The notes: a model not told the origin generated them from the sequence alone. 29,656 nt of DNA from Candidatus Poseidoniaceae archaeon (GCA_965662895.1 CBFIJH010000018.1:1-29656), one strand, 5' to 3'; counted from the stretch's first letter, positions 7,671-26,423 are shown. Numbers and translations: made by a program.

Positions 7671-8368
7671 GCCTTCACCTCCATAACTGGAATGCTCGCA
7701 TCACCAACGGCGAAAACATTGATTTCTGTTGTACCGAAGTCTTCGAACGTAACTTCGTTCGGCATGCTTGAACGCTTGACAATGCGTTCCTTCATCGATG
7801 CCATTTCACCGACGTGGGTACCTCCAACAAGATAGCATCGAACGCCCTCAACAAAGGCGATGTGTTCGAGCACTTCTTGGTCAGGAAGGGAGATCTTGAG
7901 TGAATCGCCCGTGCTGTATTGAGTCGCATCATCGACAATGACGTTGCGTCCGTCGTGGAGATTGAGTTGAGTTTTTCCACCCTTGAGTGTCGTCTTGCCT
8001 TCGATTCGTGCAATCTTCCATTGAGCCTCCTCGGCTGAAATCTTGACGTATCGCAGGCGACCGTTCGCATCAAGCATGCATCGGAAGTGTTCCTCGCTTA
8101 GTGTGAGAACGTCCATTAGACCAACACCTCGTCGGGTATCCTTGCAAATCCGTCCATCGACCTTGATCAATTCGTTGTGAACAATAAATCGAACTTCACG
8201 AGCGCTTTGTGCACGTCCAAGGACGTCACGAACGATAAGGTTGAGAGGCATACATCGCTCAAGCGAATGTCCGCCAGGGCTTGGGCGTGTAACCCAAATT
8301 GTGGTCTTTCGTGGAAGAGGCCAACTTCGTGGCATGGCCAAACGCTTCAAATGACTGCTACTACCCAT
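7667..8368 (-). CDS. rps4e: 30S ribosomal protein eS4
   Basis: HLKRLAMPRSWPL, VDGRI, VGLMDV, GGKTQLNLHDGRN; start at MGSSSH (8368) or 8377. Confidence 0.96.
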   Translation of the reverse strand: MGSSSHLKRLAMPRSWPLPRKTTIWVTRPSPGGHSLERCMPLNLIVRDVLGRAQSAREVRFIVHNELIKVDGRICKDTRRGVGLMDVLTLSEEHFRCMLDANGRLRYVKISAEEAQWKIARIEGKTTLKGGKTQLNLHDGRNVIVDDATQYSTGDSLKISLPDQEVLEHIAFVEGVRCYLVGGTHVGEMASMKERIVKRSSMPNEVTFEDFGTTEINVFAVGDASIPVMEVKA

Positions 8369-8373
8369 GTTCT

Positions 8374-8781
8374 TCAACTCCTATCCTCGGTCAATTTTTG
8401 CATTCGCAATTTGTCAGTTTCGTCAAGTTTCGTGATGACGACATTCGAGGCGTGGACCGGAACTGCCTCTTCTCTGTTGTCTGACTTGGATTGTTTTGCT
8501 CCTTCGATAAGGATGCGACCATTGTTGGCATCGATACCAATCACTGGACCTGTGAGTGGCTCAGCCTTTCGCTTTCCGCCATGACGTTTTCCGCCATGCG
8601 AGAAATCGCCACGGATGACGCGAACTGTATCGCCAGCGCGAACGGTGACCGATCGCACACCTGCAAACCGCTCATCGGGCTTGTCGAGTTGCAATCGAGC
8701 TGTGACCCGCTTGCGCTTGGTATGCATGGAGGCATTGTACTGAGCCTTTCGTTGCTTTCCTGGTTTTCTTGACTTGACCAT
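8374..8781 (-). CDS. rpl24: 50S ribosomal protein uL24
   Basis: SRKPGKQRKAQYNA, VRAGDTVRVIRGD (KOW), PVHASNVVITKL. Confidence 0.95.
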   Translation of the reverse strand: MVKSRKPGKQRKAQYNASMHTKRKRVTARLQLDKPDERFAGVRSVTVRAGDTVRVIRGDFSHGGKRHGGKRKAEPLTGPVIGIDANNGRILIEGAKQSKSDNREEAVPVHASNVVITKLDETDKLRMQKLTEDRS

Positions 8782-8790
8782 TTTTTCACC

Positions 8791-9189
8791 TCATACAATC
8801 TGTTTCGCTGTTGCAGCGATACGAGGCCAACGCTCTGCAGCCTCACGAGAAACTGGGCCTTTGATATCGGACCCTTGTACTTCACCTTTGAGATTGGTAA
8901 TAACACAAGCATTGTCTTCAAATTGGACCCACGTTCCATCAGCACGGCGGAACGGACGACGCTGTCGAATAATCACAGCATTGAACATTTGTCGACGGGT
9001 GTCTGGCGTTCCTCTCTTGACAGAAACTTTGGTCATGTCTCCAACGCCACCAGCAGGATATCGGCGCATGGTTCCGCCGAGTTTGATAACGTTGACAATC
9101 TGAACGATTTTGGCACCGGTGTTGTCAGCAACATGCAACCGAGCCATGGTTGGAAGGCCTCGGGTTTGACGACCTGCAACTCCACGCAT
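8791..9189 (-). CDS. rpl14: 50S ribosomal protein uL14
   Basis: ADNTGAK, AVIIRQRRPFRRADG, FEDNACVI, IKGPVSREAAERWPRIA. Confidence 0.97.
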   Translation of the reverse strand: MRGVAGRQTRGLPTMARLHVADNTGAKIVQIVNVIKLGGTMRRYPAGGVGDMTKVSVKRGTPDTRRQMFNAVIIRQRRPFRRADGTWVQFEDNACVITNLKGEVQGSDIKGPVSREAAERWPRIAATAKQIV

Positions 9190-9530
9190 CAGGCTTCACC
9201 CCCTGTCTTCTCGATAACACAGAATGAGACCGTCTTGGAAAGAGGTCGACATTCCATGACGCGGACGGTGTCGCCGATTTCGACTTCACCAATGCAGCTT
9301 GGAAGATGTGCGCTTAGCGAGCTGGTTCGCTTTTCGAATCGCTCGTATTTCTTCATGTAACGAACGTTGTTTCGCTCAATTGTGATCGTCTTTTGCATAC
9401 CAACACCTGAAACAACGCCCTCGAACATTTGTCCGCGTAGACGCAGGCTTCCATAGAACGGGCAGTTTTCATCCCCATCCCATTCACCAGTTGGTGTTTT
9501 TACATCAATTCCGATTTCTACCATGTTCAT
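9189..9530 (-). CDS. rps17: 30S ribosomal protein uS17
   Basis: DENCPFYGSLRLRG, KYERFEKRTS, ECRPLSKTVSF. Confidence 0.97.
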   Translation of the reverse strand: MNMVEIGIDVKTPTGEWDGDENCPFYGSLRLRGQMFEGVVSGVGMQKTITIERNNVRYMKKYERFEKRTSSLSAHLPSCIGEVEIGDTVRVMECRPLSKTVSFCVIEKTGGEA

Positions 9531-9784
9531 GCCTCTTTGTAGTTGCGGCTAATTCGATCTTCAGGTCGTTGCCGCAGGGACGACCCTGAAAGGACGGTTG
9601 TTCCGTCATTGAGTGTGAATTGAATCGATGCTTTTCCGAAAACGCGCACATGGCCGTTTTCGACGACTGTCACCGTTTTTTGTGTCTCATCGGCGACGTT
9701 TCCAGAACGACCGACAAGCGTTGGGTCTGTGGATGCTACAACGGTCAGCAATTGACCAATCCAGGTTGTGTTCATCTCCGTCAT
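9527..9784 (-). CDS. rnp1: ribonuclease P protein subunit Rpp29 (P1/Pop4)
   Basis: IGQLLTVVASTDPTLVGRSGNVADETQKT ... RPEDRI; canonical position between aIF1 and S17. Confidence 0.88.
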   Translation of the reverse strand: MTEMNTTWIGQLLTVVASTDPTLVGRSGNVADETQKTVTVVENGHVRVFGKASIQFTLNDGTTVLSGSSLRQRPEDRISRNYKEA

Positions 9785-10084
9785 TCATCTCACCTCCACA
9801 TTGAATCCGTTGTTTCGTAGTACGTTTGCTGCCTTCTTTTTGTGATCGCCTTGAAGTTCAATAACTCGACCCTTGACAGTTCCTCCAGCAGCACATTTGT
9901 TTTTGAGTAATTTTGCTAATTCGTTGATGTCGATTGCGACGTCGTCAATCCCTTCGACTTTGGTTACGATTTTTCCGTATCTCCTTCGGTCTGTGGACAA
10001 GATTGCTCGTTGTTGTTCCTTTGCAATTTCTTGGCAGATGCAGAGTTCGTCAGGCAAACCACATACACCACAAATTGCCGCCAT
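9785..10084 (-). CDS. sui1: translation initiation factor aIF1 (SUI1 family)
   Basis: CGVCGLPDELCIC, RRYGKIVT, LKNKCAAGGTVK, IELQGDH. Confidence 0.95.
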   Translation of the reverse strand: MAAICGVCGLPDELCICQEIAKEQQRAILSTDRRRYGKIVTKVEGIDDVAIDINELAKLLKNKCAAGGTVKGRVIELQGDHKKKAANVLRNNGFNVEVR

Positions 10085-10108
10085 AGTCGTTCATCACCTC
10101 GTGTTCAT

Positions 10109-10303
10109 TCAGTTGTTTCCTAGATGTGTCTTAATCCGTGCAATACTTCGTCGGGTTGCTTTGTATGCACCCATGTTGGACGGCGTACCACCAAGCGCTT
10201 TTTCGGCTTGCAGTTGGAGTAGTTCATCTTGCAATTCGAGCAAACGGGCTTCAAGAGCTTCTCGGCTCATTGCAGCAATGTCTCGATTTCGAACATGACT
10301 CAC
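10109..10303 (-). CDS. rpl29: 50S ribosomal protein uL29
   Basis: IAAMSREALEARLLELQDEL ... RRSIARIKT; GTG start overlapping the S3 stop. Confidence 0.9.
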   Translation of the reverse strand: MSHVRNRDIAAMSREALEARLLELQDELLQLQAEKALGGTPSNMGAYKATRRSIARIKTHLGNN

Positions 10304-10986
10304 TCTTCCACCTCCTCGGTGGTAACTTCGCCTTCCTCACCTTGTGCTTCACGAATCTTCAATTCTTCATCTGAGAAAATCGAAATCTCGTGTGGAAGGC
10401 GAGTATTGGCTCGCATGATTTCAACGGTAACACCAATCGTTCCGAGTTTACGGACTGCAACAGCATATCCCTTGTCCATGTGTTGGAGTGCTGTTTCACC
10501 ACAATACTTGACGTGACCCATAATGAATTTCTGAGTTCGGTTACGTGATCCTGTGAGTTTACCAGCAACAGTGACGATGACGCCACGGGCACCAGCGGAC
10601 ATGATGTTCTCTGCAGCGCTGTTACCAGCACGACGGTAATACCAGCCACGCTCGAGTGCAGATGCAATCTTTTCAGCCATAACTTGAGCGTTCAGTGTTG
10701 AATCGGATGACTTGATTTCTTCGACCTTAAGTTGAGGTTCGAACAAGTCGAACTCGCTCTTCAGTCGACTTTCAAGTTCCTTGATGATTTTTCCTTTTCG
10801 TCCAATGACGAGACCTGGTCGTTCTGCGTGAACAGTGACCTCAGTACCGTTTGGTGTACGCTTGATGTCCAATCCGCCGAATCCAGAACGCTTTGTGTTC
10901 TTCATCAAGAATTCCTTGACAAGATGACGCTCGACATTTCGGTCGACAATTGCTTTAACTGTACTTTTCTTACCTGCCATCATCAT
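10300..10986 (-). CDS. rps3: 30S ribosomal protein uS3
   Basis: RPGLVIGRKGK (KH domain), LERGWYYRRAG, GARGV...GKLTGSR, KLGTIGVTV; start may be 10980. Confidence 0.97.
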   Translation of the reverse strand: MMMAGKKSTVKAIVDRNVERHLVKEFLMKNTKRSGFGGLDIKRTPNGTEVTVHAERPGLVIGRKGKIIKELESRLKSEFDLFEPQLKVEEIKSSDSTLNAQVMAEKIASALERGWYYRRAGNSAAENIMSAGARGVIVTVAGKLTGSRNRTQKFIMGHVKYCGETALQHMDKGYAVAVRKLGTIGVTVEIMRANTRLPHEISIFSDEELKIREAQGEEGEVTTEEVEE

Positions 10987-15179: not shown

Positions 15180-15190
15180 CCCCTATATGA
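15180..15190 (-). promoter_or_regulatory. putative TATA box of the r-protein operon
   Basis: Minus strand TCATATAGGGG, same core as upstream of the 16S. Confidence 0.45.
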
Positions 15191-15285
15191 GTGGTTCGGT
15201 ACCAGAAGCAACTCAAAAGCAACGACGCAAGCAGGTTTTGTACGGCGCACATCATCCTTTTGAACCCTCGACTTTTCCTAAAATC

Positions 15286-17112
15286 ATGCCTGTCTTGCGC
15301 CATCCATTTCTCAAGGATGGAATCGAGGCACGTGCGTACCAAATCGCAGCAACACAAGCATGCGTGCAATGCTCGACACTCCTCGTAATGCCAACGGGTT
15401 TTGGGAAAACGGCGGTCCAATGGAACTGCATTGCAGACGCGCTCCAGTCAGGCGTTGAGAAAATTGTCATCACCGCACCGACGGTTGGTTTGGTTGAACA
15501 ACAACGGCGGATGATCGTCGAACGCATCGAAATTGATTCGAATGTGGTTCAGACATATACCGGAAGCAATCGTCCCATAAAACGAGGTGAGATTTGGAAC
15601 CAAGCCACCATTGTAATCGCCACCCCACAGGTCATTCGAAATGACGTGGATAGCGGTTTGATTCATTTGAAGGACGTCGGGCTGTTGATCATCGACGAAG
15701 CGCATCATGCCAAGGGCAACCACGCAACAGCCCAAGTCGCAGACAGGTACAAAGCTCAGTGCGAAAATCCGTGGCTTGTTGCAGCAACTGCAAGCCCTGG
15801 GTCAACACAGACAGCCATTCGGCAATTGTGGAATCGGCTCAATGTACATCGACTGTTCGTTGCAAAACGTGAGGATGACCTCCTCCAGCCTTATGCAGTG
15901 GACATGAATATTGCAACGATTCGTGTGATGCTTGATGCAACAACCGTCGCACTGATGGAACCGCTTGAAACCCACCAATTTGAGGAAACTGATGCGTTGA
16001 AACGCCAAGGCTTCCTTGCTCCAACGGAACATCTCACTGCCGGCCTTATCGAAGAAGCTGCACAGCGAGCGAGTATTGCTATTTCCCGGAAAGATCCTAG
16101 GGGCTATGATGCTGCTCGGCGTATTTCTGATGTTCGCCGGATGCATATGTTGCTCGACTTGCTGAAAACGCAGGGGTTGCGGTCAGCGCGTTCGTATTTG
16201 CAGCGTGCCGATGAGCAACTGCGAGCCGGTGAACGGTCAACCAGTCGATTTTTGAAGAAACACGTAATTCACAACTTCCGGCAAGCGACTGAAACGATGG
16301 ATGAGTGTCATCCAAAGTCAAAGATTGTCGCAGATCTTGTCGTCGAGCATCTCGAACAAAATCCTGATGACCGCATCCTTATCTTCAGTGAATACAGAGA
16401 CACAGTGGATCATCTTGTTCACGATTTGAATCGTATCCCCGGCGCTATTGTCGACCGGTTCATTGGCCAAAGCAAGCGTGGAAAGCGCGAAGGTATGACG
16501 CAGAAACAGCAACTCGCTCAATTGGAGCGATTTCGAAATGGTGAGATCAACGTCCTCGTGGCGACCTCCGTTGGTGAAGAAGGGTTGGATGTTCCATCCG
16601 CATCGATGGTTCTGTTCTACGAACCCGTTCCAAGTGCCATCCGGGCGATTCAACGGAGAGGTCGAACCGCTCGTGAGCGAAGCGGTTCAGTGCACGTTCT
16701 TGTTGCCAACAACACCCGCGATATTCACGTGCTTTATGCATCTAGGAATCGCGAAAAACGAATGCACAAGGTTCTGGCACGAATGCGTCTTGAAACACCA
16801 CTCGGCGCATACAAGAAACGAAAGGAAGGAAAGTTGCTTGATTTCGATATTGTTGAAGAAGGTTCCACACAAGGAGCGATCGAATTCTTGGACTCAGAAC
16901 GCGTTCGTCTGAAATCTATAGAAAAGGAGGCAGAAGAGAAGAGCGAAGCGACAACTTCAGCAGACAACGAGTCGCTACCAACACGGAAGCTGCACACACG
17001 TGCACGTTCACAGAAGAGCCTGTTTGATTTCGAAGAGAATGCACCCGACCCGTGGAAACCAGTCCTTGACGGTCGAACTTCATCCACCGATGATCATCGC
17101 TCGAGTTCGTAG
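15286..17112 (+). CDS. hef: Hef/FANCM/Mph1-family SF2 DEAH helicase, no C-terminal ERCC4 nuclease domain
   Basis: HPFLK..IEARAYQ, PTGFGKT, DEAHH, TASPG, HPK, IFSEYRDT, GMTQKQQ, ATSVGEEGLDVP, FYEPVPSAIRAIQRRGRTAR; C-terminal QKSLFDF PIP-like motif. Confidence 0.92.
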   Translation: MPVLRHPFLKDGIEARAYQIAATQACVQCSTLLVMPTGFGKTAVQWNCIADALQSGVEKIVITAPTVGLVEQQRRMIVERIEIDSNVVQTYTGSNRPIKRGEIWNQATIVIATPQVIRNDVDSGLIHLKDVGLLIIDEAHHAKGNHATAQVADRYKAQCENPWLVAATASPGSTQTAIRQLWNRLNVHRLFVAKREDDLLQPYAVDMNIATIRVMLDATTVALMEPLETHQFEETDALKRQGFLAPTEHLTAGLIEEAAQRASIAISRKDPRGYDAARRISDVRRMHMLLDLLKTQGLRSARSYLQRADEQLRAGERSTSRFLKKHVIHNFRQATETMDECHPKSKIVADLVVEHLEQNPDDRILIFSEYRDTVDHLVHDLNRIPGAIVDRFIGQSKRGKREGMTQKQQLAQLERFRNGEINVLVATSVGEEGLDVPSASMVLFYEPVPSAIRAIQRRGRTARERSGSVHVLVANNTRDIHVLYASRNREKRMHKVLARMRLETPLGAYKKRKEGKLLDFDIVEEGSTQGAIEFLDSERVRLKSIEKEAEEKSEATTSADNESLPTRKLHTRARSQKSLFDFEENAPDPWKPVLDGRTSSTDDHRSSS

Positions 17113-17934
17113 TTGTGCGAGTCGGTCTGGGAAATGGCCAAGGGCAAAAGCGACGAGTTCGGCCAAATGGATAACGGGAACAGATGTATCCTTACGTGTG
17201 ACCTTCCCGGCTTTGACTTGATACGAATCAAGATTTGCGTGTGAAATGGTGCAAGCACTCACAACGAGTTGTGCACCGTTTGCCTTGGCTTCAGAGAGAA
17301 CCGAAGCAGTCATTCGCAATGCTGTCTTCTCATTGGTCAGTAGGCTTGGGGATCCCACGCTTTGACATCGTGCATCATACGCAACCGGTGTTCCACCAAG
17401 AGCGGTAATCAAATCTTCGAGATAATGCGGGTCGAAAGGATCGTCTTCGCCGCAGAATCCTTCTCGTTGCATGTAGGGCCCATAGTATGCAGCGACCTTC
17501 ATGTTGAGTGGATTCAAAACTGCAGCCTTGACCTTGTCAAGACCAATCTCTTCGACAAGAAGATGCAAGAGGTGGCGAGATTTTGCTTCTCCAGAATATT
17601 CGATTTTGGAGGTACGTGCGATGAGATTGTTGAGTTGGGAGGCCAAGACCGAATTCGATTCCATGGTTGTTGCCGTATCGCAGTGAATGCTGTGCGAGGT
17701 CGCACACGAGGTCATGATGTCCAAACCTTTCTGTTCTGCAAGGGCAAGGTTTCTCGCTGCGAGCGCATGTTGCAAACGTGGCGAGGCTTGGCGTATGATG
17801 TTTCCACCGTCCGATGTCGCCTTCGGTAATTCAACAAGGTCAATACCGAGTGTTTTGCAGAGCGGTTGAATGCAATCCTCAACTTCCATCATTGCTCCTC
17901 GAGCGACGTTTCCGGGGTAGTATGCTACTTTCAT
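17080..17934 (-). CDS. HdrB / SdhE-like (CCG-domain family) protein with degenerate cysteine motifs
   Basis: KVAYYPG, LGIDLVEL, ARNLALAEQKG, HLLHLL.EEIG, KVAAYYG, LEDLITALGG, AQLVVSAC..HANLD, PVIHLAELVAFALG; both CCG motifs replaced (SDG, SVG). Confidence 0.85.
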   Translation of the reverse strand: MKVAYYPGNVARGAMMEVEDCIQPLCKTLGIDLVELPKATSDGGNIIRQASPRLQHALAARNLALAEQKGLDIMTSCATSHSIHCDTATTMESNSVLASQLNNLIARTSKIEYSGEAKSRHLLHLLVEEIGLDKVKAAVLNPLNMKVAAYYGPYMQREGFCGEDDPFDPHYLEDLITALGGTPVAYDARCQSVGSPSLLTNEKTALRMTASVLSEAKANGAQLVVSACTISHANLDSYQVKAGKVTRKDTSVPVIHLAELVAFALGHFPDRLAQLRTRAMIIGG

Positions 17935-17943
17935 CAGAACACC

Positions 17944-19908
17944 TCAGAATCGCTGATCGAGTTCGTTAAAGAGGCTAACCACTTCATGATGCCCTTCGAC
18001 TTTCCCATTGAACATGTTTGGGATTTTTCCAACACCTGCAGGTGGGAGGAGAAGCGCTTGCAAACTGCGAATCGGCGGACCTCCTGTTCGAGTAAATCCG
18101 AGCATCATTCGAGCAGATACACCGGAAAAGACGTTGGAGATAAGGCCAAGCGGGCCCAGAACTTGACGGTAGAGAGTGGTTTCATTGAGTTTACCGGACC
18201 ACTTGACGGAGCGACCGTACCACTTGACAAGACGTCCGTGCCGTCCAGCGTTCTTGTACTCGCTTAACAAACGACTTCGGGCGTCGTTGAGCGTGTTGGC
18301 AATCAACGCACCGGTGGCGCCTTGGCGAGCAATGGAAGCAGAGTCAGCTTCGTTCCAAATTCCACCCTTATCTTGCAGTGTAGCAAGAAGTTGGCTGCGA
18401 TGCTTATCGGAAGTGCGTGGGTCATTAATTCGGACCCATCGTTGCAGATGGAGCCCTGGTCCTTCGTAATCAGGGTCAAAATCGACGGTATCCGACATAC
18501 CGTGTGCGAGCAGGTGACTTGAAACTGCATTCATTTGATAGAGCGACAACGCAGTCTCAGAAGCGAGAGTTCCAACAGCTTGGCCACTGATGAGGCGCTC
18601 ACCTTCGCGTGGGTCCGCCTGCATCCATGGTTTCGCTTTGCTTCGATTTTCTTCGAACTTCCGTGTATCGACGATCAAATCTCGAATGACAGGATACCCA
18701 GGAAGTGGCTCAACCTTGAGTCGGCCGTTTGAGACAAGTTCGCCCACTCGGGACGTGTCGGAGAGAACGACGCGCCCGTTAACACGAACACCGGTTGTTG
18801 CTGTTCCTCCAGCAACACCACGTCGGAAAGCAAAACTTCCATCAACATCACGCTGGAACGTCATCAACAGATCTTCGAGAGATGCAGATGCTGGAACCGC
18901 CGTCGCAACAACGTCCCATCCACGTTCACCTTGAGAGGGACAGTATCGGAACAATTCCAACTCGATTTGGATTTCAGATGCATCGATGAGACCCGGTGCA
19001 AAATCACCTTCGACAATGTCGTCATCGTCGGAGGTTCCGTACGCTTTCATCTCCTCGACAAGTTCTAGCTGTAGTGTACCTGAATCATCGACGCATGCGA
19101 TGCGAGGAAGGGCTTCTTGCACCCACTCGACAAACGGAGGCTCGTAATCAACATCGCAAAGTTTGATTTCTTGAACACTGGAAGCCCCAAGACTGGAAAG
19201 TTTGTCGTCCCAGTCAAGTCCAGCCTTGCAGAACTCATCGTAGGATGTATCGCCAATCGCACAAACGGAGTAGTGCATGGCCGAGAGCGCAGGTGCACCG
19301 GACTGGACAGATTGCCACAATTCTTCTGCATTGTCAGGCATTTCTCCTTCACCCCAAGTCGACGTAATCACGAGCAAACGCTTGATGTTCGCAAGGTTTG
19401 CCTTATCGTATCCATCCATATCGACAACCTTTGCCTCCAAGCCATAGTTTGTTGCCATTTTTGCTGTTTTCTCAGCAAGGCCTGCTGCGTTTCCTGTTTG
19501 GGAACCGAAGAGAATGGTCAACGAACGGTCACCGCCCATGAGTGCAGTGAGTTCCTCGGATGCTGAACCTCCAACGGCTACGGCTGTAGGAGCTGCCTCG
19601 ACGGCGACTTCCGCTGCAGGTGCCTCAGCAACAACTTCTGTTTCGGCTCCATCCGAAACAAGTTCGAATTTGATGACTTCGACAGGACAGGCCTCGGCAG
19701 CCTCGAGGATAATATCAGCGTATTGCGTGCCAAAATCGCCTGAGAGCGGACTCATTCCTTCGTTCCGATCAAATCCTCCATCCACTCGAACTGCGGCCAA
19801 AATTTGGGATGTTTCATCGGTTACTTCAAACACTTCTGGTGCAATGTCTTGACATGCATCGCACGTGATGCAATCTTCGTCAATCCATACCTTTGCTACG
19901 ACTGTCAT
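17944..19908 (-). CDS. fusion: monocluster ferredoxin + flavodoxin + SdhB/FrdB-like domain lacking Fe-S cysteines
   Basis: aa13-74 CITCDAC...ACP; aa128-270 ILFGSQTGNA, TSTWGEGEMPDNA, GDTSYDEFC; aa313-654 FRY, DGSFAFRR, VNG, VEPLPGYPVIRDLIVD, YEGP, DPR; SD GGAGGT. Confidence 0.85.
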   Translation of the reverse strand: MTVVAKVWIDEDCITCDACQDIAPEVFEVTDETSQILAAVRVDGGFDRNEGMSPLSGDFGTQYADIILEAAEACPVEVIKFELVSDGAETEVVAEAPAAEVAVEAAPTAVAVGGSASEELTALMGGDRSLTILFGSQTGNAAGLAEKTAKMATNYGLEAKVVDMDGYDKANLANIKRLLVITSTWGEGEMPDNAEELWQSVQSGAPALSAMHYSVCAIGDTSYDEFCKAGLDWDDKLSSLGASSVQEIKLCDVDYEPPFVEWVQEALPRIACVDDSGTLQLELVEEMKAYGTSDDDDIVEGDFAPGLIDASEIQIELELFRYCPSQGERGWDVVATAVPASASLEDLLMTFQRDVDGSFAFRRGVAGGTATTGVRVNGRVVLSDTSRVGELVSNGRLKVEPLPGYPVIRDLIVDTRKFEENRSKAKPWMQADPREGERLISGQAVGTLASETALSLYQMNAVSSHLLAHGMSDTVDFDPDYEGPGLHLQRWVRINDPRTSDKHRSQLLATLQDKGGIWNEADSASIARQGATGALIANTLNDARSRLLSEYKNAGRHGRLVKWYGRSVKWSGKLNETTLYRQVLGPLGLISNVFSGVSARMMLGFTRTGGPPIRSLQALLLPPAGVGKIPNMFNGKVEGHHEVVSLFNELDQRF

Positions 19909-19925
19909 TTCATGACCTCCAAAGC

Positions 19926-19940
19926 GTCCGCTTCGCGGAC
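19926..19940 (-). promoter_or_regulatory. hairpin immediately 5' of the SD of the ferredoxin-flavodoxin fusion gene
   Basis: Minus strand GTCCGC-GAA-GCGGAC, a perfect 6-bp stem ending a few nt before GGAGGT. Confidence 0.35.
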
Positions 19941-20018
19941 AATTTTGCCACCAAACATCGGCCTTTCAACCTTGCCACGTAACCGTGGCCCGTTTTGTTA
20001 TGTTTTTTCCGAGAGTCA

Positions 20019-21641
20019 TCACATATGGAAGTCGTCTTCACCGCCGAATCCGTCTGCCATGCTCACTCCTTTTGAGGAGATGACATCATCGATACGGAGA
20101 ATCATAATCGCCGTCTCCGTTGCGGATTGAATCGCCTGCTCGACAACTCGGAGTGGTTCGAGAACATTCGCAGCCTGCATATCGACAACGCCACCTTCGT
20201 AGACGTTGATTCCAGCATGCGATGAACCATCAGCGTGCGCCTTTCGAAGTTCGATGATTGTCGTAACGGGATCCAATCCGGCGTTCTCCGCAAGGGTACG
20301 AGGAATGATTTCAAGAGCGGATGCAAAAGCCTCAATCGCCATTTGTTCACGACCGCCGATGGTTTCAGCATACGTCCTCAAATCTCGGCTGAGGGCTCCA
20401 AGAACGCTACCTCCGCCTGTAAGGACTGCACCGTCTTCCCAGGCGACGGAAACGACACCAACAGCATCGTCGAATGCCCGACGAATCTCATCGACGACGT
20501 GTTCGGTTCCACCTCGCAAGAGAACTGAAACCGATTTTGCCTCTGGACAGCCGGTGATAAAGGTCATATCGCTTTCGCCAATCTTGCGTTCTTCGACTCG
20601 GGCTGCTTGACCAAGATCTTCGGGTGCAAGGTCGTCCATATTGGTGATTATCCGGCCTCCCGTGGCCTTTGAAAGGGCTTCCATATCCGATTTTTTGGCA
20701 CGGCGAATCGCAAAAACACCGGCTTTGCTCAAGTAGTGCTGAGCAAGTTCGTCAATTCCTTTCTGACAGACCAAGACATTTGCACCAGATTGTGTGATTT
20801 TGTCAACCAGGCCTCGAATGTAGTTTTCTTCCTCTGCAAGGAAGGAGGCGAGTTGGTTTGGATCGGTAATCTGAATCTTTGCGTCAACCTCTGTCTTCTT
20901 GACTTCAATTGCTGAATTGATGAGGGCAATTTTTGCATCGTTGATGCTTCGAGGCATACCTGCATGAACGCGCTCTTTGTCCAACAGAATACCGTCGATG
21001 AGAGAGGAATCTTTGATTGAGCCTCCTTGGCGCTTTTCGACCTTGATGTCGCTCAAGTCGACAATTCGCTCGCCGTCATCAACCACTCCAACAGCGTTCA
21101 CTGCTCGTACACAAATATCTGCCATGAAGGCCTTAACGGCTCCTGCAGATTTTCCAGTCAGGGAAGTTTTCGCAACTTCAAGCAAAACATCATCGTTGCC
21201 GTCGGTTGAGATTCCGTGTCCTTCAAGGAGAGAGATTGCCTTTTCAGCAGCCAATCGGAATCCTTCGCAGATGACGGTCGGGTGAACATTTTGTTCAATC
21301 AAATCTTCTGAGCGCTTGAGGAGTTCTCCTGACAAAACGACCGCTGATGTCGTTCCATCGTAGCAGTGTTGTTCTTGCGTCTTGGCGACTTCGATGATCA
21401 TTTTCGCAGCTGGATGTTCAATGTCCATTTCCTTGAGGATGGTCGCTCCATCGTTGGTAATCACAACATCGCCCATCGAATCGACAAGCATTTTGTCCAT
21501 TCCTTTTGGCCCGAGTGTGGAGCGTACAGAGTCTGCAACTGCCTTCGCAGCAGCAATGTTGTTCGATTGAGCGCTACGACCCCGAGTTCGTTGTGTTCCT
21601 TCTTTGAGAATGAAGATTGGTGCTTGTCCGTTTCCATACAT
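20019..21641 (-). CDS. ths: thermosome (group II chaperonin) subunit
   Basis: [70 protein letters not shown]; start at MYGNG after SD AGGTG. Confidence 0.97.
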
Positions 21642-21701
21642 GTGAATCACCTTCTGTTGATGGCGAGGTGCTGAGGGTCTTGAACCCTACGACTGACCAA
21701 T

Positions 21702-24700
21702 TTACAACTGACCGTCGAGATATTGTTGACCATAGTGCTCCCATTGCTCCATAGTCCAACCATCCGGAAGTCCTCCTTGTGGAAGAGGAGGTCCTGCCGA
21801 TGGCGGCGCTGCAACGGGCGGAGGCGCACTATCTGGAACCGATGCGGTTTCAGGGCTCGGCGGCGCAGCCATTGGAACCGTCGGCGCTGCTGCGACTGCT
21901 CCATATGTTGCCGATAATGAATCCTGATACATCATCTCATCCCAATCGTCAAGCTCGTCATCTTTCTCAATCGTTGTGAGAATCTTAAACGTGATAAATC
22001 CAAGAACGCCAACCACAATCAAGAAACCGGACCAAAGCACAATGTTCTTGACAAGTTCAGAGTTTTCTTCTGAGGAAGATCCTTCACCGTCTCCAGTCGC
22101 TGCGGATTGTTTCTGTAAGACTACAGTGAGTTGTGCCGTCGGCGAGTCCGCTACGGTCTCGGATGTTGCGTAGATGGTGAAGTTCACAGTCAGTGTGTCC
22201 GATGGAAGGTTGAGAAGCGTTGCTTCGCCGACTTCGACTTCGACCGTAATTGTTCGAGACACATCGGATTCAAGGAGGAACCTTCGATCGTCATCATCGA
22301 TTTTCAAACTGATGTACCTTGACCAGTCGCCATCAACCTTGTCGATGGAAATGGTTTGAGTTGGCGAAACCAATGGATTGAGTCTGTTCTTCACTTCAAT
22401 TTCCATCTCGTAAATGAAATTCGCCTCATCGATTGATATCGGTGATGGTGGCGTCAAATCAATCGTACCTTGTCGACCGACGAGATAGGTTGCTTCACCC
22501 GTGTCGGAAATTGTTGGGTCATTGACAGATGTAGCGGTCAACCCAAGGGTCCTCGAGCCATCAGAGTTCGCAAGGAATCGGAAACGAACCTTCGCTTCCC
22601 ATGATTCGCCCGATGCGATGACTGGAGTCGTTGCGATTCCACCAACAGGGACAGGGTCGATGAGTTCTGCCTCCATTCCTTCTGGTATGTCGAGCGTGAT
22701 GGTAAACCGATCGTCTTCGTTTCCGTAATTGGTAATTTCAAACGAACGATCTGTTGTGTCTGGAGAACCTGGCAAGAAGGACTGATCAGACGATTCGTCC
22801 GACACACCCACGGCGGCGGTATCAAGAATTTCGACGTTTATTCTATAGGAGACAGACACGGAAGAATCATCCACATTCGTTGCAATGACATCGACATAAT
22901 ACGGAGCAGGCGAGAGCCCAATTGGCATTGGAAGCGTCAGAATTAATGTTGTTTCACCGTCCCATGCATCCAGTATTGCTGTTGTTTCGCCAGCGAGTTC
23001 TGCACCAAGCAGGAATTTGTGAGGACCGCCGAGAGACAATGCGTATTGCTCATCATCGTTGCCGAGATTGAGCAGTGTGAGATAAACGGTCTCGGTTACA
23101 CCATCAGCTGCACTCTGGAGGGTATTTTCATCTGTGGAAATTGTCGCTTGGCGAAGGATTGGAACCTCGATGTTGCGCCCAAGTATATCGGCACCGAACA
23201 ACGATGTCCCACAAGACGGGCAGGTTGCGCGCAAGTTGAACGAAACAACACCCGGTGTCCCAAGGCTATCAGCTGTAACATTCAGGAAAAGGTTCGTCAC
23301 TTCGGCTTTACCAAGGATGATTGGGTTCGGTACAACGACACCCGTTTCGTTTTCAACAACGGCACTCCAACCCTCCTCAGAGAATGTTGGAACTAGGTTG
23401 TACGAAGCATCACGGTTGCCTACATTTTGCAATCTGAACGGGATTGTTCCAGATTCTCCAGGCAACAATGTATCTGCGAGCAAAGGTGCTTGTGATGTCA
23501 GCGAAACACCGAATTGTTCAGTAACGGCAAGATTCATCGACACACGGCCTTTCTCCCCAGAATTTGTTCCACCACTATCCCGGAACCAAACCTGCCACGT
23601 TTGCTGTTGGACGTCTGCACCTGCAGGAATGCTGAGGTTAACGTAAACTTCTGTTGTTTCTCCCGCACCAAGACCTTGAATAATGACCGGAGAAAAGAAA
23701 TCGTTCGGGTTTGTCGTTTCAATTCGAATCGATGGGAAGGCAGGATCCATCCACGTCAAGTTCGTAACGTTGGAATAGACTGAAATCGTTGCACTGGAAT
23801 AACCATTGTTGGTGACCAAACAGCGTAGAGCAACGGTATTCGAAGGCGGCGATGAGTATCCACCCTCGGGATTGTCGCAATCGATGTTGAGCGTGAAATC
23901 GCTTACCTTCGAAACCCCGAACTGGATGAAGTCGTCAACGTGCATGCCCTCAGATGCTCCGCTACTGTCGGAATGGAAGAGAAGCCCCATTGAGTAGGAG
24001 TTGCCTCCTAAGAACAAATCAGGGTTTGCTAATCCTGGAATTTGAGCCCAATCAACTTGTGGATCCCAAGATACGTTGGTCCATTGTCCTGATGCCGGAC
24101 TCGGCGCACCGTTTGAAAAGTTCCACACAAGCGATTCCATTTTGTTGTTGTAGTTTCCAGACCCGCGCCAGAATTCAAATCCTACGTTGTCTCCAGCAGA
24201 GGTTGAACCCCACGTTTGTGCATAGAGCTGTGTTGAAATGAATTCTCCTGCAAAAAATGTCTTCCTGCATCGCCATGCTTGGTATGCCTGAGACATTCCT
24301 GGATCGAGTTGACCAGTTGGTCCACATTGCTGAGATGTCGAGTAATACGCATGAACAAGGCGGTCGTGAGCATTCGAGGGATATTCAGCACCCGGGTTGG
24401 AATGACGCCAATGGCTGACCCCTTCTGGACCACCGTTGTCCTCTCGCCAGCTTCCAATTGCGGTAGCATCTCCACCTGATGCAGGGTATCGTGCTGGAAT
24501 AAATGTCGGAGAGTTCTCGTTGGATACTTTCGTTCCATCAAATGCATCCTTCATGATGGCAACGGGAACTGTCTGTTCCATTACGTCGTTTCCATTGATG
24601 TCGTCGTTCGCATAGAGAACGCTAGCACGTACAATCAGACCTCCATGGAGGTCGTTGGTCGTTGTATTGAGAATGGAGTGAGCGATGAGTGGCGTCCACA

Positions 24701-25082
24701 CGTACGACCCCTCATTTTGCTGACCACCTAAAAGATCGGGGGTTGTGAAATTTGAGGATTCAATGACGTATCCAATCGGATGGACGATTTCGATGAGGAC
24801 AAGTGCCGATTTACCTGTAAGAGAATTGCCTCCCAATTGTACCTGAACCTTTACTTCAATCTCTTGACCCATGACCAAGTAGTCCACTGTGGATTGATCG
24901 GATTGAACCCATGTGTACGCAGAATCGGTTGCATTTCCAAGCGTGATTTTCTTGACGAAGAAATCGTCGTTGTTTCCTCCGCGACCAGATGCCGCTTCAG
25001 CTGAATCCATAACAAGCAAAGAAGCCGTTTGGAAGACCATGAGTGCAATCAAAAGCATGGGGATACTACGTCGCATTGGCAT
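21702..25082 (-). CDS. large secreted, membrane-anchored surface protein with repeated Ig-like beta-sandwich modules
   Basis: Signal peptide (MRRSIPMLLIALMVFQ...AEA), repeated motifs VTNNG, LQNVGNRD, LLNLGNDD, ITNYGNED; C-terminal TM helix IVLWSGFLIVVGVLGFITF followed by acidic and Pro-rich tail; start uncertain (25076-25100). Confidence 0.8.
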   Translation of the reverse strand: MPMRRSIPMLLIALMVFQTASLLVMDSAEAASGRGGNNDDFFVKKITLGNATDSAYTWVQSDQSTVDYLVMGQEIEVKVQVQLGGNSLTGKSALVLIEIVHPIGYVIESSNFTTPDLLGGQQNEGSYVWTPLIAHSILNTTTNDLHGGLIVRASVLYANDDINGNDVMEQTVPVAIMKDAFDGTKVSNENSPTFIPARYPASGGDATAIGSWREDNGGPEGVSHWRHSNPGAEYPSNAHDRLVHAYYSTSQQCGPTGQLDPGMSQAYQAWRCRKTFFAGEFISTQLYAQTWGSTSAGDNVGFEFWRGSGNYNNKMESLVWNFSNGAPSPASGQWTNVSWDPQVDWAQIPGLANPDLFLGGNSYSMGLLFHSDSSGASEGMHVDDFIQFGVSKVSDFTLNIDCDNPEGGYSSPPSNTVALRCLVTNNGYSSATISVYSNVTNLTWMDPAFPSIRIETTNPNDFFSPVIIQGLGAGETTEVYVNLSIPAGADVQQQTWQVWFRDSGGTNSGEKGRVSMNLAVTEQFGVSLTSQAPLLADTLLPGESGTIPFRLQNVGNRDASYNLVPTFSEEGWSAVVENETGVVVPNPIILGKAEVTNLFLNVTADSLGTPGVVSFNLRATCPSCGTSLFGADILGRNIEVPILRQATISTDENTLQSAADGVTETVYLTLLNLGNDDEQYALSLGGPHKFLLGAELAGETTAILDAWDGETTLILTLPMPIGLSPAPYYVDVIATNVDDSSVSVSYRINVEILDTAAVGVSDESSDQSFLPGSPDTTDRSFEITNYGNEDDRFTITLDIPEGMEAELIDPVPVGGIATTPVIASGESWEAKVRFRFLANSDGSRTLGLTATSVNDPTISDTGEATYLVGRQGTIDLTPPSPISIDEANFIYEMEIEVKNRLNPLVSPTQTISIDKVDGDWSRYISLKIDDDDRRFLLESDVSRTITVEVEVGEATLLNLPSDTLTVNFTIYATSETVADSPTAQLTVVLQKQSAATGDGEGSSSEENSELVKNIVLWSGFLIVVGVLGFITFKILTTIEKDDELDDWDEMMYQDSLSATYGAVAAAPTVPMAAPPSPETASVPDSAPPPVAAPPSAGPPLPQGGLPDGWTMEQWEHYGQQYLDGQL

Positions 25083-25133
25083 CAACACTCGACCCAACAA
25101 CTTGCATCATATGAAGATGGCCGTTGTTTGCTC

Positions 25134-26423
25134 TCAATTTTCTTGACGATGCTCTTCCGAAAGAAGCCCTTGAATGGTGGGTTGGTCGTATGGAGGCGAT
25201 TCATCGGATTCTATCTCTAAGAGACTGTTGTCAAACGCAGGTAAATCGAGGACTCGATCTTCCTCCAAGATTGGGAGCGAGGGTGTCGATAAACTGGAGG
25301 TGGTTTCTCGAACTGCATCGACACCTGTAGGCGTTGCCGAGGCCATGGCTGAGAGACCAGTTGCCACGTCCTGTCCCTTGGAAGCGACACCTGCTGCAGC
25401 CGCAACTGCAAGCGTGGCACCTGTTGTTACTGCAGCTGTTGTTACTTTCCCTAAGAGCCCAAAGTCTGGAGAGTCTCTTCCATCAAAGCGGGAAGAGACG
25501 TCCTCGGTTTGATTCATCCAGTTAGGAGGATTGGTTGAGCCGCCCTCCAATACTGCGAGCGTGGTGAATGCTGCCAAAGGCATGACAGCCAAAGCTGTGA
25601 GAAGATCGAGGAAACTTGTCTCGGGTATGACCGCATTTCCGAGGAATGTTTGGAACAGGTTGGCCTCAAAAGTAATCGATAATTCCGCATCTTGACCCAT
25701 CCAGCCGAGAACAACCAAACTTGCAAATCGCCCCATGAGCCACAAGACAAGAACCGGAGCAAGCCACGAAAGTTTTGTCATCGAAATGAGCCATCGCCGA
25801 GTAAAGGTTGCAACCCCGATGTACTTTCGACAAAAACGAGGGTAAAGCCGCATGGCTGCGAGCAATCCGACGATGTAGAGCAGTATCGCAAGTTCAAGTC
25901 GACGATTTAAGCGCACAATGGATTCTGGAACCATCATAACGAGCGTAAGCGGAATTGTGACGAGAAGAATTTGGAACGGAACCGCAAGCAGCAACAAACC
26001 TCCATGCGTTGAAATCAACGAATTCCCGCGCATCATTCTCCGATGAACAAGCGTCGATAGCGATCCATGAGGAGAGGTTGAGAAATTGTCTCGTGCTCGA
26101 CGCAAACTCGATGCTGAACGTCCGGCCCTTGACATTCCCAGAGCAGCCATCCATCCTCCTCGTTCCACTATCCATATCGGGCGATAACCGCCCATGACCA
26201 AAGCGAGAAACAGAGCGAGCATCCCATAGCCAAGAGATGCAGCCATAATCCATGGCAACATTTCTCTTTGAACACCGATGGTAATGTTTTCTCCAGTCAT
26301 GTCCAGGTCAAGCAAATACGTAATGGAGAAAGCTGCCATTGGCGTAAGGAAAATTTGGCAGAAGACAACGATGGTCAACCAAATCCGAGCAGTCAACGGT
26401 CCACGATGGTTAACCTGCCCCAT
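25134..26423 (-). CDS. hypothetical multi-pass membrane protein
   Basis: 429-aa ORF with about 6 hydrophobic segments and a low-complexity Ala/Thr/acidic tail. Confidence 0.75.
   Translation of the reverse strand: MGQVNHRGPLTARIWLTIVVFCQIFLTPMAAFSITYLLDLDMTGENITIGVQREMLPWIMAASLGYGMLALFLALVMGGYRPIWIVERGGWMAALGMSRAGRSASSLRRARDNFSTSPHGSLSTLVHRRMMRGNSLISTHGGLLLLAVPFQILLVTIPLTLVMMVPESIVRLNRRLELAILLYIVGLLAAMRLYPRFCRKYIGVATFTRRWLISMTKLSWLAPVLVLWLMGRFASLVVLGWMGQDAELSITFEANLFQTFLGNAVIPETSFLDLLTALAVMPLAAFTTLAVLEGGSTNPPNWMNQTEDVSSRFDGRDSPDFGLLGKVTTAAVTTGATLAVAAAAGVASKGQDVATGLSAMASATPTGVDAVRETTSSLSTPSLPILEEDRVLDLPAFDNSLLEIESDESPPYDQPTIQGLLSEEHRQEN

Follow-up and report, generated by a model that had tools for sequence, protein, structure and literature searches.

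The window analysed is a stretch of 29,656 nucleotides from a Candidatus Poseidoniaceae archaeon (GCA_965662895.1, CBFIJH010000018.1:1-29656), and it carries two genes, here called A and B, whose features are summarized in Table 1. Both are uninterrupted open reading frames. The ATG of B lies 9 nt after the TGA stop of A, and a GAGGTG Shine-Dalgarno sequence overlaps that stop. The first-pass annotation had described two intact reading frames in this arrangement, with the same coordinates, and this was confirmed from the sequence. It had also reported no adjacent SdhA or HdrA, and none was found adjoining A or B in the window, where the neighbours are a thermosome gene and a Hef-like helicase gene. 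Thermosome, helicase and ribosomal protein genes are the conserved neighbours of the pair, and they are uninformative on the pathway.

Table 1. Features of the A-B locus, in positions of the whole window
Feature	Position	Strand	Description and basis
Intergenic region upstream of A	19909..20018	minus	110 nt; GGAGGT 7 nt before ATG
Gene A	17944..19908	minus	654 aa; ORF, Pfam and NCBIfam; ferredoxin, flavodoxin, cluster-free SdhB-like core and tail
Ferredoxin domain	19663..19908	minus	A residues 1-82; single-cluster [4Fe-4S] type; C13, C16, C19, C74-P75
Linker 1	19534..19662	minus	A residues 83-125; acidic, Ala/Glu/Val-rich, predicted flexible; pLDDT, conservation and charge
Flavodoxin domain	19093..19533	minus	A residues 126-272; FMN-binding, diflavin-reductase (CysJ/CPR/NOS) type; Flavodoxin_1
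Linker 2	18973..19092	minus	A residues 273-312; acidic; pLDDT and charge
SdhB/FrdB fold	18289..18972	minus	A residues 313-540; two domains, 0/11 cluster-ligand cysteines; Fer2_3, ligand columns, PDB, Foldseek
C-terminal tail	17947..18288	minus	A residues 541-654; homologous to extension of 'long' SdhE-pairing SdhBs (hhalign)
Family-specific insertion	18034..18099	minus	A residues 604-625; 22 residues, GFTRTGG... motif; canonical long SdhBs lack it
A stop, Shine-Dalgarno and spacer	17935..17946	minus	TGA, overlapping GAGGTG, 9-nt spacer; sequence
Gene B	17080..17934	minus	284 aa; HdrB/SdhE-fold protein, 2/10 CCG cysteines
Degenerate first CCG motif	17680..17934	minus	B residues 1-85; N9, S41, D42, C77, S80
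Degenerate second CCG motif	17230..17502	minus	B residues 145-235; P153, S192, V193, C228, S231
Thermosome gene	20019..21650		neighbour
Hef-like helicase gene	15187..17112		neighbour, convergent

Of 8000 candidates scored with A, 1247 were homologs at E<=1e-3. The four domains named at first pass (ferredoxin, flavodoxin, SdhB-like and HdrB/SdhE-like) were recovered, with Fer4_13, Flavodoxin_1, Fer2_3 and CCG all above their Pfam cut-offs. Fer4_13 (PF13370) matched residues 9-80 with 37.6 bits against a cut-off of 24.5. The weak PDB matches of this domain were single-cluster ferredoxins, its predicted model showed pLDDT of 84-90, and its ligand set CxxCxxC...CP is invariant in 21 ferredoxin-bearing sequences. 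Flavodoxin_1 (PF00258) matched residues 132-253 with 105.3 bits (cut-off 25), and the same domain matched the NCBIfam cysJ model TIGR01931 at 1e-39. The PDB search gave NOS (1.7e-22) and CysJ (1.4e-21), with motif-for-motif alignment to both FMN domains, and Foldseek gave NDOR1 (target TM 0.83, rmsd 1.9). The stretches GSQxGN, STWGEG and GDxxY, which we take to be the FMN-binding loops, are invariant in 21 sequences. Linker 1 showed pLDDT below 50 at residues 85-115, 0/43 invariant positions and a net charge of -9 over residues 81-131, and linker 2 showed pLDDT below 50 at residues 293-310 with a net charge of -16 over residues 254-316. Both are predicted to be disordered, acidic and unconserved tethers for the N-terminal modules.

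The N-terminal architecture is ferredoxin plus flavodoxin in 17/21 genera, two flavodoxins in 3/21 and a single flavodoxin in 1/21, that is, a second flavodoxin stands in place of the ferredoxin in three genera and the ferredoxin is lost in one, the events being interspersed on the tree. The comparison suggests that ferredoxin and flavodoxin are interchangeable carriers on one platform, and their repeated exchange for one another is what would be expected of functional electron carriers, not of sensors. In the 92%-complete genome, Flavodoxin_1 and Fer4_13 domains occur only in A, once each.

The core of A retains the full SdhB fold, including its N-terminal domain. Fer2_3 matched residues 317-419 with 38.9 bits (cut-off 27), and NCBIfam SdhB models aligned over residues 313-520 with scores far under their cut-offs (TIGR00384, 53.4 bits against 88; PRK05950, 60 against 228). 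The hhalign comparison with canonical long SdhBs gave 99.95% (E 2.9e-38) over 309 columns, tail included, the PDB profile search gave 6lum_B (1.9e-15), and Foldseek placed the model at target TM 0.75-0.82 to SdhB/FrdB chains. The ligand columns of the three clusters ([2Fe-2S], [4Fe-4S] and [3Fe-4S]/[4Fe-4S]) hold no Cys at any of the 11 positions in the window, in 21/21 genera or in 113/113 close homologs. The equivalent residues of A are V365, T369, T372 and D384; V462, H465, A468 and S472; and E520, I526 and G530. The single Cys within residues 300-654, C323, lies outside all these columns. The former 2Fe-2S positions vary by genus (V, G, S, N, D, A or T), and the CxxCxxCxxxCP motif of the third SdhB cluster (a second [4Fe-4S]) is absent from A and present in the relatives L051-L054.

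The tail showed the lowest dN among the segments (0.018); this and the values for B (0.030-0.043) are tighter than that of the flavodoxin domain (0.05-0.07). Folded alone, the tail gave pLDDT of only 31-46. Because it is under the strongest constraint yet does not fold alone, it is a candidate partner-binding segment, with B as its probable partner. The family-specific insertion within it is a template gap in the hhalign alignment and is on average better conserved (0.72) than every other segment, with 4/22 positions invariant.

The Pfam CCG model (PF02754) matched only the N-terminal half of B, just above the cut-off (22.6 bits against 20.6), and the HdrB model TIGR03288 matched at 2.9e-39 with a score of 135, far under its cut-off of 345; phmmer gave HdrB at 6.4e-30. 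The model of B (pLDDT 90.1, pTM 0.89) showed the HdrB fold, with TM 0.88-0.90, rmsd 2.4-2.6 and identity 26-27% to 5odc_B and 8rwn_B. The AF2 models are predictions built from 21-23 sequences, and in them the Cys-free folds are confidently modelled as SdhB (target TM ~0.8) and HdrB (TM ~0.9). These results, together with the hhalign comparison, are in accordance with the homology to SdhB and SdhE/HdrB proposed at first pass. The two CXnCCGXmCXXC motifs of B keep Cys at 2/10 columns in the window, and these two, C77 and C228, are invariant. The second motif (CCG-2) is degenerate in 21/21 genera and in 70/70 readable named loci, and the first (CCG-1) is complete in 8/21 genera. The earlier statement that both proteins were stripped of their ligand cysteines together stands for the window and for A in all orthologs examined, but not for CCG-1 of B in those eight genera. 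B also carries a new conserved C-terminal helix relative to its Cys-intact relatives. The lone natural A-B 'fusion', in genome G019, results from a 28-codon deletion combined with a shift of frame, possibly an artefact.

The module is common to the Poseidoniales (marine group II), which are abundant marine archaea. A and B were each found in 200/201 Poseidoniales genomes and were adjacent in 130/131, with 8-41 nt separating their matches, and no stop codon was found within the listed matches. Same-genus pairs showed dN of 0.05-0.06 against dS above 1, where dS is saturated and omega is bounded only. These values show purifying selection on A and B. Conserved pairing and selection, both raised in the first-pass annotation, were borne out.

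Other Thermoplasmatota carry a 12-Cys SdhB with the CxxCxxCxxxCP third motif directly 5' of a CCG protein, which is 36% identical to B and has 10/10 CCG cysteines. These sequences suggest that A-B descends from a type-E-like SdhB-SdhE pair, one that keeps its cysteines in those lineages. The loss of the SdhB ligands is older than the split of the Poseidoniales families. The iron-sulfur loss was stepwise, as CCG-1 is intact in 8/21 genera and the ferredoxin is replaced or lost in 4/21; ferredoxin-only and double-ferredoxin forms of A co-occur with intact CCG-1 in B. The stepwise loss and the repeated ferredoxin-to-flavodoxin swaps give indirect support to the iron-sparing idea. The module is apparently an electron-transfer complex rewired for low iron, with iron economy as its putative selective driver.

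The reading we prefer, and hold with about even confidence, is that A and B make up a conserved two-subunit, Poseidoniales-specific electron-transfer protein in which an SdhB/SdhE platform tethers mobile low-potential carriers; complex formation and the direction, donor and acceptor of the electrons are what we infer within it. The complex would trace back to a type-E-like succinate:quinone oxidoreductase, namely to its SdhB and SdhE subunits. All three clusters would have gone from the SdhB fold, and the HdrB/SdhE fold would have lost CCG-2 everywhere and CCG-1 in the lineage of the window; both folds would persist as a stable structural platform. Redox chemistry would be left to the two N-terminal modules on their long acidic disordered linkers, the [4Fe-4S] ferredoxin and the CysJ/CPR-type FMN domain; in known diflavin reductases the FMN domain is a swinging shuttle. 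Low-potential electrons would most likely enter the N-terminal carrier, for example from a 2-oxoacid:ferredoxin oxidoreductase, and pass to FMN. The genome encodes a POR-type oxidoreductase, and it also holds several free dicluster ferredoxin-like ORFs, so that low-potential electrons could also be carried by proteins other than A. FMN would then deliver the electrons to an acceptor held at the platform; in the ancestral form the first acceptor would be the cluster at CCG-1 in B. The electrons would probably end on a membrane-surface quinone, following the proposal for type-E SdhE, or on a docked flavoprotein. The first-pass annotation had proposed a structural or membrane-docking scaffold with FMN and one cluster carrying electrons. 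A structural scaffold with these two carriers fits the invariant ferredoxin and FMN motifs, the disordered linkers and the confident cluster-free folds. No TM-like stretch is present in A or B (maximum KD19 1.31 and 1.37). Any membrane attachment of A or B is suggested by analogy.

An unlikely alternative makes A-B the small subunits of a repurposed, complex-II-like flavoenzyme with three subunits. An orphan SdhA-like protein would dock on the SdhB-like core and electrons would run from FAD to the swinging FMN and then to ferredoxin, or in reverse, the FAD-to-FMN logic of diflavin enzymes replacing the iron-sulfur wire. Such a flavoprotein (PF00890 and PF02910) is encoded at contig C2:75749-77413 of the genome, with no adjoining Fe-S gene. 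It shares the phyletic range of A and B, being found at E<=1e-30 in 59/61 Poseidoniales genomes, and an ortholog-level match was absent from 5/5 sister-family genomes, where the best (6e-23) is at the level of the orphan's match to the canonical SdhA of its own genome. The FMN domain of A is of the type normally fed by FAD, and the N-terminal domain of SdhB, which contacts SdhA in known enzymes, is kept. However, the orphan gene never adjoins A or B, and two genomes that carry the pair, G035 (94% complete) and G055 (89%), yielded no match to it. Missing from the protein are the covalent-FAD His, the HPT motif and the RGEGG catalytic Arg, so that it may be inactive, and it is equidistant (E about 4e-32) from type-E SdhA, the SdhA of its own genome and NadB. 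It is rather improbable that a complete but degenerate complex-II-like set is kept in Poseidoniales, comprising this orphan without catalytic Arg, the cluster-free SdhB and the cluster-poor SdhE, with the swinging FMN domain in place of the whole Fe-S wire. For some open-ocean lineages the outcome would be a wholly iron-free respiratory-type dehydrogenase or a ferredoxin:quinone link (FAD/ferredoxin to FMN to quinone). If true, this would be the first example of a relative of complex II whose wiring had changed from iron-sulfur to flavin, with marine iron scarcity as the driver.

A non-redox pseudoenzyme pair that regulates canonical SdhCAB, assists its assembly or serves as its decoy, with the N-terminal domains as redox sensors only, is highly improbable. 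A separate Cys-intact operon of anchor, SdhA and SdhB, which the first-pass annotation had proposed looking for, is present elsewhere in the genome; an SdhB look-alike could in principle compete with it, and catalytic cofactors are lost from both Sdh/Hdr folds. Against this stand the invariant ferredoxin and FMN motifs, the repeated swapping of the carriers, the CCG-1 site kept in the ancestral form and the lack of linkage between the sdh operon and A/B. The chance that clusters are still held by Asp, Ser, His or Glu, leaving the pair a conventional Fe-S wire, is very slight. D384, H465, S472 and E520 are conserved and capable of metal ligation, and B has its two invariant cysteines, but each former cluster retains at most one or two potential ligands, the other positions being V, T, A, I or G, the 2Fe-2S positions are variable, and AF2 folds both proteins confidently without cofactors. 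Recent decay, with the pair a dying remnant of a second Sdh, could explain the loss of nearly all ligand cysteines but has practically no probability. A pseudogene or decaying remnant is refuted by the intact ORFs in 200/201 genomes and by dN far below dS; the conserved adjacency, the absence of stops from the listed matches and a loss older than the family split also argue against it.

No description of the A-B module was found in the literature searched; the first-pass annotation, too, knew of no such architecture among described systems. Among the closest known systems is the SdhB-SdhE pair of type-E succinate:quinone oxidoreductase from Sulfolobus and Acidianus (Hamann et al. 2009, PMC2754724). 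This pair and the Cys-intact Thermoplasmatota pairs (L051-L055) resemble A-B in the adjacency and order of SdhB and CCG genes, in homology along the entire length of the two proteins, the C-terminal SdhB extension included, and in a CCG subunit free of TM segments. They differ in that here the SdhB ligands are 0/11, 8/10 CCG cysteines are lost and SdhA is not adjacent, and in the added N-terminal ferredoxin and FMN domains, the 22-residue insertion in the tail and the C-terminal helix of B. Succinate:quinone oxidoreductase activity and monotopic binding to the membrane characterise the type-E enzymes (SdhABEF).

A second relative is the 8-methylmenaquinol:fumarate reductase (MFR) SdhABE of Campylobacterota (Juhnke et al. 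2009, PMC2680327). NCBIfam models of MFR SdhE (NF042965, matching B), MFR SdhB and TfrB matched the pair at 2.1e-37, 6.4e-7 and 1e-5, with scores far under the curated cut-offs (129 against 500 for B, and 28.7 against 600). Compared with MFR SdhABE and TfrB, A-B is without clusters and without a flavoprotein neighbour. In thiol:fumarate reductase, TfrB is an SdhB fused to an HdrB-like domain. The protein P0286 likewise joins a canonical SdhB and a CCG domain in one chain, which supports the SdhB and CCG families working as one unit. B also shares the fold of HdrB in the HdrB-HdrC part of heterodisulfide reductase (PDB 5odc, 8rvv). The HdrB cluster ligands come from the C-terminal CCG motif (PMC2754724), whereas this motif is degenerate in every member of the B family. 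No HdrA or HdrC is present here, and the core of A matches SdhB, not HdrC.

Both in sequence and in fold, A residues 126-272 are closest to the FMN domains of the diflavin reductases (CysJ, cytochrome P450 reductase, NOS reductase and NDOR1) and, like those, are tethered by a flexible linker. Unlike these enzymes, A has no FAD/NADPH (FNR-like) domain; its FMN domain instead shares a chain with a ferredoxin and an SdhB fold. That flavodoxin stands in for ferredoxin when iron is scarce is general knowledge. For cyanobacteria it is described as isiB versus petF in PMC13096325. The N-terminal ferredoxin of A resembles this in being swapped for a second flavodoxin or lost in some genera, but the swap in A is a hard-wired domain architecture that differs between lineages and not a regulated two-gene switch.

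The module formed by the ferredoxin-flavodoxin-SdhB-like fusion (A) and its HdrB/SdhE-like partner (B) is real, ancient and universally conserved in Poseidoniales. In the window, both minus-strand ORFs were found intact and exactly where the first-pass annotation had placed them, 9 nt apart; the stop codon of A is a TGA overlapped by GAGGTG and the ATG of B lies 9 nt further on. The Pfam search on A gave Fer4_13 (residues 9-80), Flavodoxin_1 (132-253) and Fer2_3 (317-419), all above gathering scores, while the NCBIfam SdhB models aligned over residues 313-520 with scores far under their cut-offs. B passed the Pfam CCG cut-off narrowly and matched the HdrB model TIGR03288 (2.9e-39) and the MFR SdhE model (2.1e-37), both far under cut-off. 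Of the nine cysteines of A, four belong to the ferredoxin domain, another four fall within the flavodoxin domain or shortly after it, and C323 is the sole one among the last 355 residues. When aligned with Cys-bearing SdhBs, the 11 ligand columns of A read V365 T369 T372 D384 / V462 H465 A468 S472 / E520 I526 G530, and the ten CCG columns of B read N9 S41 D42 C77 S80 / P153 S192 V193 C228 S231. The loss of ligand cysteines first noticed in both chains was thus borne out, cysteine being retained in none of the 11 columns of A and in two of the ten of B. The homologs carry automatic database names ('flavodoxin domain-containing protein', 'heterodisulfide reductase subunit B', 'succinate dehydrogenase Fe-S protein', 'hypothetical protein'), and automatic annotation wrongly names the module as an Fe-S protein.

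Coordinates and strands of the genes and residues of the module and of the candidate partner
Feature	Position	Strand	Description
Gene A	window 17944..19908	minus	654 aa, intact ORF
Gene B	window 17080..17934	minus	284 aa, intact ORF
B C77, C228	window about 17702-17704, 17249-17251	minus	surviving CCG cysteines
Orphan SdhA/FrdA-like flavoprotein	contig C2:75749-77413	minus	554 aa, PF00890 + PF02910; loci L010, L056

No SdhA or HdrA gene adjoins the pair in the window, the neighbours being a thermosome gene and a convergent helicase gene, and the conserved gene order around the pair (thermosome, helicase, ribosomal operon) shed no light on its function. The Hef-like helicase gene (15187..17112, plus strand) overlaps the 3' end of B by 33 nt (17080-17112). 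Upstream of the thermosome gene, two minus-strand ORFs of 1132 aa (21702-25100) and 429 aa (25134-26423) were without a Pfam match at E<=1e-5, and their position is conserved in 20 of the 21 genus-level loci.

As regards fold and descent, the core of A is a true SdhB and B is a true HdrB/SdhE. Comparison of a profile of 20 A cores with a profile of nine Cys-bearing 'long' SdhBs gave a probability of 99.95% (E 2.9e-38) over 309 columns, the alignment taking in the C-terminal tail minus a 22-residue insertion specific to the Poseidoniales module family. Against solved structures, the core profile retrieved SdhB/FrdB chains (best 1.9e-15), the match being limited to core positions 8-247. The AlphaFold2 model of A, built from 21 sequences, was confident for the ferredoxin, flavodoxin and core domains (block pLDDT about 80-93) and disordered in both linkers and the tail. 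Foldseek placed the core of A on complete SdhB/FrdB chains (target TM 0.75-0.82, 15-22% identity) and its FMN domain on those of NOS, CPR and NDOR1; the model of B (pLDDT 90.1, pTM 0.89) superposed on HdrB with TM 0.88-0.90 and rmsd 2.4-2.6 Å. These confident models and superpositions indicate that the SdhB-like and HdrB-like folds are predicted to be stable free of clusters. A protein-atlas search with a homolog gave just the clusters of the family itself and, as a sub-threshold lead, DUF5644; a relation of the core to DUF5644 was rejected, since none of the 20 cores scored against PF18712.

The four ferredoxin cysteines do not vary in the 21 ferredoxin-bearing sequences, and neither do three stretches of the flavodoxin, GSQxGN, STWGEG and GDxxY. 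These stretches, which we take to be FMN-binding, belong to a domain that aligns motif for motif with the FMN domains of NOS and CysJ, thereby backing the FMN-binding assignment; by its sequence and fold matches, the FMN domain of A is of the CysJ/CPR/NOS type. The linkers before and after the flavodoxin are unconserved, with 0 of 43 and 1 of 40 positions invariant, and acidic (net charge -9 and -16). The most conserved segment of A is the 22-residue family-specific insertion of the tail (mean 0.72), and the C-terminal helix of B (271-283) is conserved and unlike canonical proteins. C77 and C228 of B, invariant in 23 sequences, occupy equivalent positions in its two halves and could be a residual thiol pair, a metal site or merely structural. 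No TM-like stretch was found in A or B.

In a sample of 201 genomes of the order, the A core was matched at E<=1e-20 in 200, covering 61/61 high-quality genomes and 24/24 genera, and the single genome without a match is 85% complete. B was present in 200 of the 201 as well, its one absence falling in a genome 81% complete. Among the 131 genomes with both places listed, 130 have B immediately 3' of A in the same orientation, at a distance of 8-41 nt; in the exception both matches are cut at contig ends. The pairing, for which the first-pass annotation had recommended a check in orthologs, therefore holds across Poseidoniales. In a 301-genome sample of the phylum, strong A matches were limited to the order (41/41 and 22/22 genomes of its families f1 and f3); none of the eight genomes of the sister family of the same class gave one, and the matches in thirteen further genomes were weak, at E 1e-9 to 1e-15, and fell on ordinary SdhBs. 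When 1.84 billion representatives were searched exhaustively, 22 matches came at E<=1e-30, full-length members and fragments, before scores fell off to Cys-bearing SdhBs. The 80 related loci are labelled Ca. Poseidoniales, Poseidoniaceae, Thalassarchaeaceae or MGII MAGs, with two odd labels. The latter, a 'Yoonia sp.' MAG (L109) and a 'Deltaproteobacteria bacterium' SAG (L117), are contigs with a typical Poseidoniales module and probably reflect mis-binning or contamination.

For same-genus pairs, dS was saturated (at least about 1) and dN of A was 0.05-0.06; because of this saturation omega is only bounded, at about 0.05 or below. Among the segments, dN was lowest in the tail (0.018), followed by B (0.030-0.043), the flavodoxin (0.05-0.07) and the second core domain (0.094-0.099). 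These substitution rates clearly point to purifying selection on the module, strongest on the Cys-free parts. Recent decay under relaxed selection, which had been named as the contrary outcome, was not what was found, dN being far below dS, and throughout the order the gene pair is universal, present in single copy and under strong constraint. At one locus (L046, genome G019, contig C27, ORF 7871-10834) a single 987-aa ORF spans A and B; at the junction about 28 codons of the otherwise conserved tail are deleted and the frame changes. This ORF represents either a genuine fusion or an error of assembly, and its use as Rosetta-stone evidence was set aside on account of the junction.

The loss of iron-sulfur sites was surveyed with one locus per genus in 21 genera. 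The core ligand columns were without any cysteine in 21/21 genera, and also in 113/113 close homologs of at least 600 aa among the 120 matches listed, so the loss in the SdhB-like chain proved to be conserved. The same claim for B stood in part: its second CCG cysteine motif (CCG-2) is degenerate, with one of five cysteines, in all 21 genera, but the first (CCG-1) is still complete in eight, reads NSCCT in eight and NSDCS or NGDCA in five, the window belonging to the last group. The N-terminal architecture is ferredoxin plus flavodoxin in 17 genera, two flavodoxins in three and flavodoxin alone in one. An NSCCT-type B stands beside all four ferredoxin-less loci, and these modules are therefore without any complete Fe-S motif. 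Among 71 named loci with both genes, a sample skewed to ferredoxin-bearing forms by the search pattern, 27 retain a complete CCG-1, among them two flavodoxin-less variants with one (L082) or two (L083) ferredoxins before the core; CCG-2 is degenerate in 70/70 readable loci of the named-locus sample. A first scan of named genomes for relatives of the ferredoxin-only variant P0253 found none. Three Phycisphaerae contigs (L158, L159, L161) code for a ferredoxin that has no SdhB-like part and shares 59-62% identity with the P0253 ferredoxin domain over the latter's first ~60 residues.

The A-core tree showed family f3 as monophyletic (100/98), with CCG-1-intact genera basal and NSCCT forms nested inside (99/97), the NSDCS forms as a separate f1 clade (98/98) and the ferredoxin-less forms scattered among ferredoxin-bearing ones. 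The B tree unites all CCG-1-depleted forms, from two taxonomic families (100/99), whereas the A core follows taxonomy. This discordance may reflect convergence once the cluster was lost, or B alone having been exchanged between the families. Going by the history of the operon, CCG-1 was lost independently at least twice, and ferredoxin and flavodoxin were swapped repeatedly.

Homologs of B with 35-36% identity and 10/10 CCG cysteines were found in five genomes from two other Thermoplasmatota families. In four of these (L051-L054), the homolog lies directly downstream of a 322-332-aa SdhB with 12 cysteines, whose third cluster motif is CxxCxxCxxxCP, given as the type-E signature in a passage of PMC2754724. 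At L054 the ORF upstream of SdhB resembles the SdhA C-terminus, a by-eye, unscored likeness. On the strength of these Cys-intact pairs with the type-E motif, the Poseidoniales pair is best read, from sequence comparison, as having arisen from a type-E-like sdh(A)BE unit. A separate Cys-intact sdh, also to be looked for according to the first-pass annotation, is present on contig C7 of the window's genome, where a canonical operon encodes an anchor of 276 aa, an SdhA of 620 aa and an SdhB of 255 aa.

A rigid, conserved and cofactor-free platform, a conserved tail not folding alone, long flexible tethers and interchangeable N-terminal low-potential carriers together suggest that the module would act as a docking scaffold for mobile electron carriers. 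This scaffold-plus-carriers reading is well supported, and the structural scaffold with FMN and cluster carriers initially suggested agrees with the invariant ferredoxin and FMN motifs, the disordered linkers and the confident cluster-free folds. Complex formation between A and B, the donor, the acceptor and an iron-sparing driver are what we infer beyond it. FMN domains of the CysJ/CPR/NOS type shuttle electrons through domain movement. A holds the sole Flavodoxin_1 and Fer4_13 domains in the 92%-complete genome, which has, in addition, a POR-type 2-oxoacid oxidoreductase and several small ORFs resembling dicluster ferredoxins. Given the scaffold pattern, the shuttling FMN type and the POR, low-potential electrons may enter via the N-terminal ferredoxin (or flavodoxin), pass to FMN and then reach an acceptor sited at the platform of the SdhB-like and SdhE-like folds; the ancestral form would have used a route via the CCG-1 cluster of B.

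The acceptor may be a membrane quinone, on analogy with type-E SdhE, a TM-less subunit proposed as quinone-site holder in a passage of PMC2754724. Alternatively, the acceptor or donor may be the orphan SdhA-like flavoprotein of contig C2, a candidate which occurs in 59 of 61 order genomes and gave no ortholog-level match in 5/5 sister-family genomes, although it is without the covalent-FAD His, the HPT motif and the catalytic Arg. No Fe-S subunit gene lies beside it, and it is equidistant from a type-E SdhA, the genome's own SdhA and NadB; a tree of it was set aside, two of its three outgroup rows being ORFs on the wrong strand. In some order genomes its match has a single in-frame TGA, TAG or TAA, which may be the alignment overrunning the true stop. 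Elsewhere in the window's genome, two long ORFs (928-aa and 696-aa frames; C12:~23.4-25.1k and C3:~107.8-108.9k) carry Cys-intact CCG domains and Fer4 motifs.

Marine group II archaea, which are still uncultured, rank with the most abundant archaea in surface seawater; according to a passage of a 2026 study (PMC13096325), they accounted for about 8% of the metatranscriptomes from the deep chlorophyll maximum. Their module shows SdhB and HdrB folds persisting very long without any cluster, and the range of forms built on this one scaffold, running by degrees from Fe-S wiring to wiring by flavin only, is a natural experiment in the iron economy of electron transfer. If the partner is found, the module may fill a respiratory-chain gap as a route of low-potential electrons to the membrane.

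Degenerate N-terminal CCG domains are already on record in a passage of PMC2754724. The main-text excerpts of the literature searched gave no description of a family that has lost every SdhB ligand and the C-terminal CCG, in many cases the N-terminal CCG too, and has gained ferredoxin and flavodoxin, in agreement with the initial remark that no system of such architecture was known. The module is not described in the passages of PMC11237513, PMC6336850, PMC9723583, PMC13096325 and PMC10238741, that of PMC6336850 naming just the canonical complexes I and II together with an orphan RnfB. The module works like an SdhB-SdhE/HdrC-HdrB-type unit and descends from it, but it fails the defining cofactor features of each of these families; what is new is an SdhB/SdhE-type pair that has shed its Fe-S wire and bears flavin/ferredoxin carriers on tethers.
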